Positions 1,538 through 36,729 of a stretch of DNA of 64,000 nucleotides are shown in pieces. The DNA is from Escherichia coli (GTDB taxonomy: Bacteria > Pseudomonadota > Gammaproteobacteria > Enterobacterales > Enterobacteriaceae). The DNA is taken from NCBI RefSeq assembly GCF_003334305.1, contig NZ_QOWS01000018.1. One strand, 5' to 3'. Position 1 is the first letter of the stretch. Every line of letters starts with the position of its first letter. Below the pieces are notes generated by a model that saw only the letters and a list, made by a program, of their open reading frames with translations, did no database searches and was not told the DNA's origin. The position numbers were made by a program, and so were the translations under genes.

Positions 1538-2626
1538 TTAGAACTGGTAAACGATACCCACAGCAACGGTGTCGTCTGAACCTACGCCCAGTTTGTTGTC
1601 AGAATCGATCTGGTTGATGATGTAGTCAACATAGGTGGACATGTTTTTGTTGAAGTAGTAGGTTGCGCCCACTTCAAAGTAGTTCACCAGATCAACATCA
1701 CCGATACCTTCTACGTCTTTCGCTTTAGATTTGGTGTAAGCGATGGACGGACGCAGACCGAAATCGAACTGGTATTGCGCAACTAACAGAACGTCTTGCG
1801 TTTTGTTGGCGAAGCCGCTGGTGTTTGTAAATTTATTAGTGATCGGCGTAGCGTTACGGGTTTCACCGTAGTTCGCTGCCAGGTAGATGTTGTTCGCGTC
1901 GTACTTCAGACCAGTAGCCCACTGTTCAGCTTTTTTACCGTTGCCAAGAGGTTGAGCTTCTTGCAGGTTGGTACGGTCAGCTGCACCATAAGCACCAACG
2001 ATACCAAAGCCTTCGTATTCGTAGCTGATAGAACCGCCAACACCGTCGCCGTTAGAACGGCGTGCAGTGTCACGCTCGTTTTTACCCAGGTACTGAACAG
2101 CGAAGTTCAGGCCATCAACCAGACCAAAGAAGTTGGAGTTACGATAGGTAGCAACGCCGCCAACACGACCAACGAAGAAGTCATCGCTGTATGCAGTATC
2201 ACCACCAAATTCTGGCAGCATATCGGTGTAACCCAGTGCATCATAAACCACACCGTAGTTACGGCCGTAATCGAAAGAACCAACGTCAGCGTATTTAAGA
2301 CCCGCGAATGCCAGACGCGTTTTGTTACCAGTTTGAGCGTCAGCGCCTTCAGAGTTGTTACCCTGGAAGTTATATTCCCACTGACCATAACCGGTCAGAT
2401 CGGAATTGATTTGAGTTTCCCCTTTAAAACCAAGACGGGCATAGGTCATGTCGCCATTGCCACCGTAACTGTTTTCACCGTTACCCTTGGAAAAATAATG
2501 CAGACCAACAGCTTTACCGTACAGATCTACTTTGTTGCCATCTTTGTTATAGATTTCTGCAGCGTTTGCAGTACCTGCTACTAACAGAGCAGGGACGATC
2601 ACTGCCAGAATATTGCGCTTCATCAT
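1538..2626 (-). CDS. ompF: Outer membrane porin F
   Basis: 362-aa [25 protein letters not shown] with signal peptide, ending in the porin C-terminal VGIVYQF. Confidence 0.97.
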
Positions 2627-2739
2627 TATTTATTACCCTCATGGTTTTTTTTATGACACCTGCCACTGCCTTCAATAAGTTCTGTCAATAAAAATTTACG
2701 GAACTATTGATGAGAGTTTGGTGTCTTTATGTGTCTGCA

Positions 2740-2840
2740 GGCATCTTTCCATTCAAACTAACGTTTCGCTACCGTGAAAGTGCTACAAAGATAAAGATTT
2801 AGTTTCAAAAAGAAAAAATATGTAACCAAAAGTAAAAATT
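2740..2840 (-). promoter_or_regulatory. ompF promoter with proximal OmpR-binding sites (F1-F3)
   Basis: Reverse complement reads TTTACTTTTGGTTACATATTTTTTCTTTTTGAAAC...TTTATCTTTGTAGCACTTTCACGG, matching the ompF upstream OmpR region as I recall it; exact site boundaries are approximate. Confidence 0.6.
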
Positions 2841-3184
2841 AAGGAACTTTGTGAACACCGTCATATTTCCATAGAAACGTGATGATATTTACAGCAATTT
2901 TTATCTATTTATATGATTTACTTATATTTAAATTAACTAAACGGAAATTTTGTTTCTGATGGAAACTTTATCGACCTGGCACAAAATCCTCTTTCAGACA
3001 TCCAGAATGCCAAAAAATAGTATGAAAATTGTGCTATCAGCTAAGAAAAAACTAATCCGCAATAAGAATGCGGGTTATTTTTTGTGCGTAAATGTTGCAA
3101 TGTAATATTCCGTAACAGGATGATCGTTATGGCGGGGTTGCAAATAGATTGCTTGACTTAACAAACAGATAACTTGACAGAAAG

Positions 3185-3215
3185 GATAAAAAAGAGCCAG
3201 CAGGCGCTGGCTCTT
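3185..3215 (-). terminator. asnS intrinsic terminator
   Basis: Stem agagccag/ctggctct followed on the minus strand by a U-run (plus-strand aaaaaa at 3187-3192). Confidence 0.6.
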
Positions 3216-3227
3216 TGAGGAAGAAAA

Positions 3228-4628
3228 TCAGAAGCTGGCGTTGCGCGGAGTACGTGGGAACGGAATCACATCACGCACGTTTTGCACGCCAGTTACGTAA
3301 GCAATCAGGCGTTCAAAACCAAGACCGAAACCTGAATGCGGAACAGTACCGTAGCGACGCAGATCGCGATACCACCAGTAATCTTCTTTATTCAGGCCCA
3401 TTTCCAGCATACGCTCGTCCAGAACGTCCAGACGTTCTTCACGCTGGGAGCCACCAATGATCTCACCGATGCCCGGAGCCAGAACGTCCATAGCCGCAAC
3501 GGTTTTACCGTCTTCGTTGAGGCGCATATAGAACGCTTTAATATCTTTCGGATAGTTTTTAACCACTACCGGTGCTTTAAAGTGTTCTTCCGCCAGATAA
3601 CGCTCATGCTCAGAAGAGAGATCGACGCCCCAGTAAACCGGGTTTTCAAACTTCCTGCCGCAGTTTTCGAGAATGGTCACTGCGTCGGTGTAATCCACCT
3701 GCGCGAAATCGGCCTCAATGAAGCGTTCCAGACGTGAAACGGCATCTTTATCTACGCGTTCAGCGAAGAATTTCATGTCGTCTGCGCGTTCTTCGAGAAC
3801 CGCTTTGAAGACATATTTCAGCATGGCTTCAGCCAGACCCGCGATATCGTTCAGGTTAGCAAACGCCACTTCCGGCTCCAGCATCCAGAATTCCGCCAGG
3901 TGACGGCTGGTGTTGGAGTTTTCAGCACGGAAAGTCGGGCCGAAGGTATAAATTTTGGATAATGCGCAAGCGTAGGTTTCGCCGTTCAACTGGCCAGATA
4001 CGGTCAGGAAAGACTCTTTACCAAAGAAGTCTTTGTCGAAATCCACTTTGCCCTGATCGTTACGCGGCAGGTTTTCCAGATCCAGCGTAGAAACGCGGAA
4101 CATTTCGCCTGCACCTTCGGTATCAGATGCGGTAATCAGTGGCGTTGAAACCCAGAAGAATCCCTGCTCGTTAAAGAAGCGATGCAGCGCCTGCGCCAGC
4201 GTATGGCGAACGCGCGCGACGGCACCAATCAGGTTTGTGCGCGGACGCAGGTGAGCGACTTCACGCAGATACTCAATGCTGTGGCGTTTTGCCGCCATCG
4301 GGTAAGTGTCTGGATCTTCAACCCAACCAGCAACTTCAACTTTGCTGGCCTGAATTTCAAATTGTTGCCCCTGGCCCGGCGACGCCACGACTTTACCCGT
4401 CACAATGACCGAGCAGCCGGTGGTCAGACGCAGGACGTCTTCATTGTAATTGGGCAGAGAATTATTGATGACAGCCTGTACAGGATCAAAGCAGGAACCG
4501 TCATAAACGGCGAGGAAGGAGATGCCAGCTTTTGAATCTCGGCGGGTACGTACCCATCCGCGTACGGTGACTTCGCTGTCAACGGCTACGCGGCCCTGGA
4601 GTACGTCGGCTACAGGCACAACGCTCAT
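3228..4628 (-). CDS. asnS: Asparaginyl-tRNA synthetase
   Basis: Track ORF 3228..4673 trimmed to the internal ATG giving [13 protein letters not shown] (466 aa); class II aaRS motifs such as FRAE and GFGLGFERL are present. Confidence 0.95.
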
Positions 4629-9083: not shown

Positions 9084-9851
9084 TTAACCATGACGCCGAA
9101 TCAGTTGTTCAGAATGCCCACGCCGCATTACCCGTTGCAATACTTCCGCTTCCAGCTCCGCTAATCGCACCGACCCTAACCGGCGCGGACGAGGGATATC
9201 CACCGTCAAATCCAGACCAATTTTTCCCTCTTCAATTAACAGCACCCGGTCAGCCATTGCTACCGCTTCGCTCACATCATGCGTCACCAACAGTACGGTA
9301 AAGCCGTGCTGCTGCCAAAGTGACACAATCAAATCCTGCATCTCGAGTCGCGTTAAGGCGTCCAGCGCCCCGAGCGGTTCATCAAGCAACAATAAACCCG
9401 GTCGATGAATCAACGCTCTTGCCAGCGCCACACGCTGTTTCTGCCCGCCAGAAAGTGCGGCAGGCCATTCCCCGGCGCGATTCTCCAGTCCTACTGCAGC
9501 CAACGCCCGACGCGCGGCATCGCGCCACTGGCCTTTAAGGCCTAACCCAACGTTATCAATCACCGATTTCCACGGCAGCAGACGCGCATCCTGAAACATC
9601 ATTCGCGTGTCTTCCTGAATCTCAGCCAGCGGTGTGGTGCCCGCTAACACATCGCCTGCGGTTGGCGTTTCCAGACCTGCCAGCAGGCGCAGCAGGGTAC
9701 TTTTGCCACCACCGCTGCGGCCCACCACCGCCACAAACTGACCTGCCGGAATATGTAAATCCAGTTGGTTCAGGACGATATTTTCCGCGTAATGTTTGCT
9801 TACTGCATTGAGCAACAATGGTGTGCCCTGGTTCAGACGAGCAGTATTCAT
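9084..9851 (-). CDS. ssuB: Aliphatic sulfonate ABC transporter, ATP-binding subunit
   Basis: 255 aa; Walker [13 protein letters not shown] signature LSGGQKQR, Walker B LLLLDEP. Confidence 0.95.
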
Positions 9852-36219: not shown

Positions 36220-36729
36220 TTAATGATACAAATTAGAGTGAATTTTTAGCCCGGAAAGTTGTCTCGTGGCGTGAGAGGATGCGCTTACCGGACGCATAAT
36301 AAACCCCATAGCGTTACCTTCATTTGCCGCATCAACAAGTTCAGCATGCTCTTCTTCAGTCAAATCATCTGCCAACCAACCGATCACCACACTGTAATTG
36401 CCCGTGCGTAAAGCGCGAACCATTGACTCCACAGTGTGGCAAGGGGAGAGCTGGCTAATCTGCATTACTTTCGTTAAGGGTAGCCCAGATGCCTGAACCC
36501 ATTCCCGACTCAGTTTTTGTTGCGGTGTTAACCAGAGTTGCCAGCGCGATTGCTGACCGAGTTGCTGTAACAATGGCAACAGTAGAAGTTGCGTCATCAT
36601 GGGCTGATCTTCGCGATAGACAACTTCACTGATAAGCCCGGCTGTAGTGTTTTCCGTAGAGACACGCGCAATTTTACTTGCTGCGGATGAGAACGACGAA
36701 GAACGATGTGCATAGCCTGAAGTGTACAT
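36220..36729 (-). CDS. sulA: SOS cell division inhibitor SulA
   Basis: Track ORF trimmed to [25 protein letters not shown] (169 aa). Confidence 0.95.

Follow-up and report, generated by a model that had tools for sequence, protein, structure and literature searches.

The 601-bp gap between ompF and asnS in the analyzed DNA (a 64,000-nucleotide stretch of the Escherichia coli genome, referred to below as the window) very probably represents the complete, well-characterised regulatory region of E. coli ompF. We have identified the elements of this region, determined their positions and followed their conservation in related species, and found that the distance separating the distal OmpR box F4 from the proximal OmpR boxes is fixed. 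In the direction of ompF transcription, the asnS terminator is followed by ca. 75 bp of variable DNA, the weak box F4, an AT-rich, intrinsically curved spacer of ca. 260 bp in which a conserved IHF-like block and a CRP-like site are found, the boxes F1, F2 and F3, the promoter and the leader.

The Intergenic Region Between ompF and asnS

The genes flanking the gap, ompF (positions 1538-2626) and asnS (3228-4628), both on the minus strand, were assigned from open reading frames and the RefSeq annotation of identical or near-identical genomes, and the same sources confirmed that the two genes are read in the same direction. The window also carries aspC (163-1353) and pncB, both likewise on the minus strand. 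The initial annotation described the space upstream of ompF as unusually long (600 bp) and very AT-rich, and this description proved accurate, with exact coordinates. The gap (2627-3227) is 601 bp long and has a G+C content of 33.4%, compared to 51.0% for the window, with a minimum of 27% at 2801-3000. Intergenic gaps within positions 1-50000 of the window were ranked using annotation borrowed from a near-identical genome (260 mismatches in 50 kb). The ompF-asnS gap is the longest of the 35 positive intergenic gaps (the median is 110 bp and the runner-up is 426 bp), and its G+C content is the second lowest among the 18 gaps of at least 100 bp.

The counterpart of the gap in K-12 MG1655 is 602 bp long and has the same arrangement. 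Together with ca. 30 bp of each flanking gene, the gap is 98% identical to K-12. Differences within the gap amount to about 20 substitutions and a 1-bp deletion, and about half of them fall in the first 20 bp past the asnS stop codon. The flanking genes, the F1, F3 and F4 boxes, the 260-bp F4-F1 spacing, the -10 hexamer, the leader and the MicF target are the same in both. Of 5426 complete E. coli genomes, 5425 gave a match to a 1-kb query across the gap; many of these matches are 100% identical, and the genes under them are annotated as porin OmpF and asparagine--tRNA ligase. The region is present in a single copy.

For comparison with other species, one genome per species was scanned with a pattern placed at the ompF start codon. 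This procedure yielded 120 loci, of which 102 had enough flanking sequence, and in each of these 102 species asnS is the upstream neighbour of ompF. Conservation values given below are the fractions of bases matching the window base in 10-nt bins, calculated for 68 Enterobacteriaceae species. At the asnS end of the gap, a terminator scan and an inverted repeat search revealed the intrinsic terminator of asnS (3191-3216, minus strand), which is moderately conserved (0.61-0.73) in these 68 species. Its stem of 11 bp is perfect, the loop has 4 nt, and a T-run follows.

The length of the asnS-ompF gap is distributed bimodally. It is 518-790 bp (mostly 590-613 bp) in the 68 Enterobacteriaceae species and 296-311 bp in 34 species of Erwiniaceae and Rouxiella. 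As can be seen from the alignment of the long class, strong conservation extends from the leader through F1-F3.

Proximal OmpR Boxes, Core Promoter and Leader

The gap was compared with published OmpR box sequences, for which a curated list (Additional file 3 of PMC3050692) was used. On the minus strand, the sequences at 2817-2836 (-100 to -81) and 2777-2796 match the published F1 and F3 boxes exactly, while F2 (2797-2816) differs from K-12 F2 by a single substitution, C to T (GAAACC to GAAACT). The three boxes together span 2777-2836, 151-210 bp from the ATG, which corresponds to positions -100 to -41 if transcription starts at 2736. We take 2736 to be the ompF transcription start, assuming a leader of 110 nt. 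This assignment is self-consistent, as it places the first bases of F1 and F4 at -100 and -380, in accordance with the published numbering of the boxes. The initial annotation placed F1-F3 in the proximal 100 bp of the gap. The boxes are indeed present; the distance, however, holds only when counted from the transcription start, because the first 110 bp of the gap are leader.

We then scanned both strands of the window (127,962 positions) with an OmpR matrix built from 17 listed boxes, none of them from ompF. F1 ranked 1st, F3 18th, F4 20th and F2 32nd. Seven of the thirty top matches are located in the gap, which makes up 0.9% of the window. With a gap-matched background, the score of F1 was not equalled in any of 2000 dinucleotide-preserving shuffles (P<1/2000). 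The three ompC boxes (C1-C3) by themselves gave a matrix so weak that it missed F1-F3, and the 17-box matrix was used in its place. The second-best match to the 17-box matrix window-wide, TTTACTTAATGATACAAATT (36215-36234, plus strand, 16.5 bits), is located at the point where the gap upstream of ompA meets the 3' end of sulA.

The -10 hexamer of the ompF core promoter, AAAGAT, occupies 2743-2748 on the minus strand, upstream of the start at 2736 that is derived from the literature leader length. The sequence ATGGAAAGATGC at the core promoter is nearly invariant in both gap-length classes. A good -35 element is absent, and a generic σ70 scan revealed no minus-strand promoter at this location. 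A poor -35 element is to be expected, since the ompF promoter depends on an activator. The ompC-micF region with its boxes C1-C3 is built in the same manner: tandem 20-bp OmpR boxes with the same consensus half-sites abut a promoter with a weak -35 element. Unlike ompF, ompC has neither a distal repressing site nor a loop. In a genomic SELEX study, a peak of the RpoE holoenzyme was located in the ompF-asnS spacer at the old K-12 coordinate 986332, i.e., roughly at the ompF core promoter (PMC5493296). We also noted a 17-nt imperfect direct repeat (82% identical, plus strand), whose copies at 2742-2758 and 2862-2878, 120 bp apart, join the -10 region (GTTTGAATGGAAAGATG on the ompF strand) to the left half of the CRP-like site considered below; the repeat is likely due to chance.

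The ompF leader, which we take to be 110 nt in length (2627-2736, minus strand), contains a long conserved stem-loop at +12 to +82 (2655-2725, minus strand) that was recovered in both single-sequence and consensus folds. Fifteen consensus pairs of the stem are kept in 88-100% of 101 distinct leaders, and eight of these pairs show compensatory changes. The structure of the ompF leader has been described earlier (PMC1489923).

Pairing with the MicF sRNA was predicted using nucleotides 1-34 of the K-12 MicF sequence. The predicted target (2616-2643, minus strand, mRNA positions +94 to +121; -27.4 kcal/mol) takes in the final 17 leader nucleotides, continues 11 nt into the coding sequence, and spans both the Shine-Dalgarno sequence GAGG and the AUG. 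Thus, the earlier statement that MicF targets the leader (2627-2736) is borne out with respect to pairing at the ribosome-binding site and has to be narrowed with respect to extent, since only the last 17 leader nucleotides, plus the 11 coding ones, take part in the predicted duplex. Among 2556 tiles of the window, the ompF site is the best partner of MicF nucleotides 1-34; the next tile scores -26.7 kcal/mol, and the mean is -11.7 kcal/mol (sd 3.6). This next-best tile (9651-9800, minus strand) lies inside ssuB/ssuC, and its duplex with MicF is probably a matter of chance. Since its energy (-26.7 kcal/mol) nearly equals that of the ompF site, a low duplex energy taken by itself carries little evidential weight. 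Predictions made with full-length MicF and the leader were uninformative, as shuffled MicF sequences performed as well or better. Conservation of the target is not readable from the 120 loci, because the pattern used to fetch them lay inside it. A micF gene was not found within the window, in agreement with the claim that MicF is encoded elsewhere.

Distal OmpR Box F4 and Its Spacing

The distal OmpR box F4, GTTACGGAATATTACATTGC, is located at 3097-3116 on the minus strand (-380 to -361) and is identical to the published K-12 box. It begins exactly 260 bp upstream of F1, which is the F4-F1 separation stated in the literature (PMC3050692). A second, overlapping F4 register is found at 3089-3108, and the conserved F4 zone (3088-3117) has the form TGTTAC-N5-TTTC...GAAACA. 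The initial annotation mentioned a distal OmpR site for this promoter, and a matrix scan for a distal match had been chosen beforehand as the test that could refute it. The scan did yield a distal match and thus did not refute the site. When scored against the gap-matched background, F4 is the second-best match in the gap and the best one in its distal part, though a score of this level arises in 17% of shuffled distal regions (2000 dinucleotide-preserving shuffles; P=0.17, not significant). Since the score is not significant from sequence alone, the assignment of F4 is carried by its identity with the experimentally defined K-12 box and by its conservation across species.

The top distal match to the OmpR matrix falls in the zone aligned with F4 in 35 of the 68 species; this zone makes up ca. 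6% of the distal alignment columns. In many genera, it is the opposite strand of the zone that scores higher (for example, GAAACAAAACGTAACAGGTA, 10-11.5 bits), and the orientation of F4 is therefore ambiguous. One more OmpR-like match, a palindrome GTTTC-N5-GAAAC at -235 to -216 (2952-2971 on the plus strand, 2947-2966 on the minus strand), is the fifth best in the gap, with a score of 9.2 bits (7.0 bits with the gap-matched background). The region around it is poorly conserved outside Escherichia.

To measure spacing, we used the GTWAC of F4 and the invariant sequence TCACAAAG of the proximal cluster as anchors (2854-3116 in the window). In all 54 species where both anchors were recognisable, F4 is kept in position: its distance to the proximal cluster is 256-263 bp (sd 1.5), a count made over related species that are not independent of one another. 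The sequence between the two anchors averages only ca. 50% identity in these 54 species. The distance from the asnS stop codon to F4 in the same species is 96-295 bp (sd 44.7), and the distance from the proximal cluster to the ATG is 213-234 bp. The comparison suggests that it is length rather than sequence that is constrained between F4 and F1, as a loop of fixed geometry predicts; this is support for such a loop, not proof of it. An analysis of helical phase was uninformative, as the distances from F4 to the proximal cluster span too small a range for different periods to be told apart.

The short-gap species retain F1-F3, the leader and two conserved blocks of the spacer, the CRP-like block A and block B (both described below), and lack the entire distal module, including F4. 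In these species, block B directly follows the asnS stop codon and is itself followed by the asnS terminator and then by the CRP-like block, so that the terminator occupies the place where the long class is most variable (-165 to -130). The short ompF regions of Yersinia, Erwiniaceae and Photorhabdus, in which the gap is only ca. 300 bp, likewise share with the window F1-F3, the CRP-like block, block B, the -10 hexamer and the leader stem-loop, and differ from it by the absence of the F4 module and by the location of the asnS terminator between block B and the CRP-like block. This arrangement suggests that the distal module, made up of a new terminator and F4, may have been gained or lost as one unit. 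Yersinia has been reported to lack both F4 and ompF repression at high osmolarity, and Y. pestis ompF has likewise been reported to be unrepressed; the short gaps without F4 agree with these reports.

A bimodal gap length (ca. 300 versus ca. 600 bp), suggestive of the gain or loss of a single block, would also be seen if the extra length were functionless AT-rich filler, such as the remnant of an old insertion, in which an OmpR-like match arose by chance, and both the non-significant score of F4 against shuffles and the mean spacer identity of only ca. 50% fit with such an origin. Yet the F4 motif is retained across genera, the 54 species differ by only a few bp in its distance to the proximal cluster and by up to 200 bp in the length of adjacent non-coding DNA, and several short blocks are conserved at 0.6-0.85. 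Repeats and traces of mobile elements are absent, and published genetics and footprinting give F4 a role. We therefore give hardly any credence to the idea of filler and regard the distal part as belonging to the ompF regulatory region. A mobile-element origin of the distal module was considered separately and found no support, as flanking repeats are absent and the region is single copy.

Conserved Blocks and Opposite-Strand Features of the Spacer

Just upstream of F1, conserved block A (2843-2866, minus strand, centred near -121.5) contains a CRP-like site, TATGA-N6-TCACA. Conservation values of block A range from 0.74 to 0.89 in the long class, and Erwiniaceae have the block as well. A segment of it, GTTCACAAAGTTCC, is near-invariant in ca. 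100 species of two families, and its conservation exceeds that of the OmpR boxes. In Y. pestis, a CRP site at -131 to -109 of ompF has been footprinted (PMC3050693). By analogy, block A is the positional counterpart of this site and a candidate CRP site. For E. coli porins, the same paper describes control by CRP only via ompR-envZ.

Conserved block B, TTAATTTAAATATAAGTAAATCATATAAATAG (2905-2936, minus strand, -200 to -169), shows conservation of 0.61-0.85 and is also found in the class with gaps of ca. 300 bp. Block B and the CRP-like block flank the least conserved part of the gap and lie 61-63 bp apart in 47 of 50 species. The initial annotation took IHF-dependent looping to be established for this promoter, and primary IHF papers are cited in the literature for the control of porin expression by this protein. 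The IHF consensus WATCAANNNNTTR had no matches with at most one mismatch in the gap, where 1.9 would be expected from shuffles. Matches with two mismatches cluster at -188 to -165, inside the block conserved across the 68 species; the best IHF-like core, TATGATTTACTTA (2912-2924, plus strand), has two mismatches and lies within block B. A core with one mismatch (TATGAAnnnnTTA) is present at the same aligned place, on the strand corresponding to the plus strand of the window, in 49 of the 68 species, and this is by far the most recurrent location. The single mismatch is always a G where IHF sites normally have a highly conserved C. The assignment of block B to IHF is uncertain for this reason, and, judging from its sequence, the block may bind something other than IHF.

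DNA bending was predicted with a wedge model. Phased A-tracts, unphased A-tracts and random sequence, used as controls, gave 26, 9 and 6 degrees per turn, respectively. Curvature prediction across 2627-3227 had been proposed as a check on the gap. Ranked against every 601-bp window, the mean predicted curvature of the gap reaches the 99.9th percentile. It peaks at 2898 (-162) with 24.9 degrees per turn, a value exceeded only once in the 64 kb, and this peak adjoins block B; the bend centre is predicted at 2891-2906. Compared with composition-matched shuffles, the gap is only modestly more curved (P about 0.03-0.05).

Several further minus-strand blocks stand out in the spacer. Two of them, ATAGCACAAT (3028-3037, about -300; conservation 0.79) and TCTGGATGTCT (2996-3006, about -265; 0.60), are set in poorly conserved surroundings. 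Two others, the A-tract block ACAAAAAATAA (3075-3085) and TTATTGCG (3058-3065), lie beside F4 and are conserved as sequence and not as a stem. By eye, ATAGCACAAT resembles the half-site of OmpR box F3 (GTAGCACTTT), and in some genera a box of the MarA/SoxS/Rob type. The A-tract next to F4, with its flanks, would fit a loose Fis consensus.

On its promoter side, F4 is adjoined by a hairpin (3053-3077) that carries T-runs on both strands and is terminator-like in both directions. It folds with -10.2 kcal/mol in the window and with -8.0 kcal/mol in E. albertii, while the family median is -1.9 kcal/mol, with z about 0. A conserved terminator or RNA hairpin at this place was therefore ruled out, as the structure is stable in Escherichia only. 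Compared to K-12, one substitution weakens the minus-strand hairpin and leaves a G-U pair on the plus strand. A conserved small protein encoded on the plus strand was ruled out as well: the 48-codon ORF found there (2959-3105, from the ORF list) is confined to Escherichia. E. coli and E. albertii alone have it intact, and each of the other 66 species either lacks it or has a scrambled version.

These features bear on the question of what the distal half of the gap is for. In a tiling-array study, a transcript named C0240 was reported from the ompF-asnS spacer, where it runs on the opposite strand (PMC3082872). A possible plus-strand transcript can be drawn at 2888-3083, beginning with a promoter-like site, TTTACA-18-TATGAT (2888-2917, score 10/12), and ending with the hairpin and T-run at 3053-3083. 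Together with the 48-codon ORF, these observations would fit a distal half (about 2900-3190) that is there mainly for a divergent transcription unit, the sRNA or small ORF C0240, in which case the length of the gap would not stem from long-range control of ompF. We consider this very unlikely. Against it stand the occurrence of the intact ORF in two species only and of a stable hairpin in Escherichia only, and the candidate promoter has its -35 element in the least conserved part of the gap. An Rfam search of 2300-3500 (E up to 1) retrieved nothing relevant, and no feature is annotated in the distal part of the gap in any of 12 E. coli records sampled across the match ranking. Moreover, what is conserved family-wide is spacing and short DNA blocks and not a transcript-like unit.

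With long-range control of ompF kept as the preferred explanation of the distal half, the spacer may still have functions of its own. It is possible, though rather doubtful, that at least one of its blocks (ATAGCACAAT, TCTGGATGTCT, ACAAAAAATAA/TTATTGCG, or block B, should the latter not be an IHF site) binds a further ompF regulator and that, in Escherichia, looping could interact with C0240, a lineage-specific transcript whose end would lie at the hairpin adjacent to F4. If so, the spacer from F4 to F1 would do more than serve as passive loop DNA. The conserved spacer blocks are a minor addition and are possible targets for mutagenesis.

For protein occupancy, the loop and the direction of regulation, we rely on the literature, in which the following scheme is established. 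For the loop, the constant spacing of F4 in 54 species and the high predicted curvature of the spacer are indirect evidence. At low OmpR-P, the F1-F2(-F3) boxes would be occupied and RNA polymerase recruited. At high OmpR-P, F4 would be occupied too and would contact proximal OmpR via a DNA loop; aided by bent or IHF-bound spacer DNA, this loop would shut the promoter. MicF would separately block translation of ompF.

The ompF regulatory region described here is already known and does not depart from the established system. Two-component signalling, long-range repression by DNA looping and antisense RNA control all count ompF osmoregulation among their founding examples, and the finding of the region here does no more than confirm the presence of the standard E. 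coli locus in the window. The specificity of the distal F4 module to Enterobacteriaceae, with a distance that is held within a few bp despite ca. 50% sequence divergence, is a modest comparative addition, and the fixed spacing of F4 provides independent evolutionary support for a geometry-dependent (looping) mechanism.
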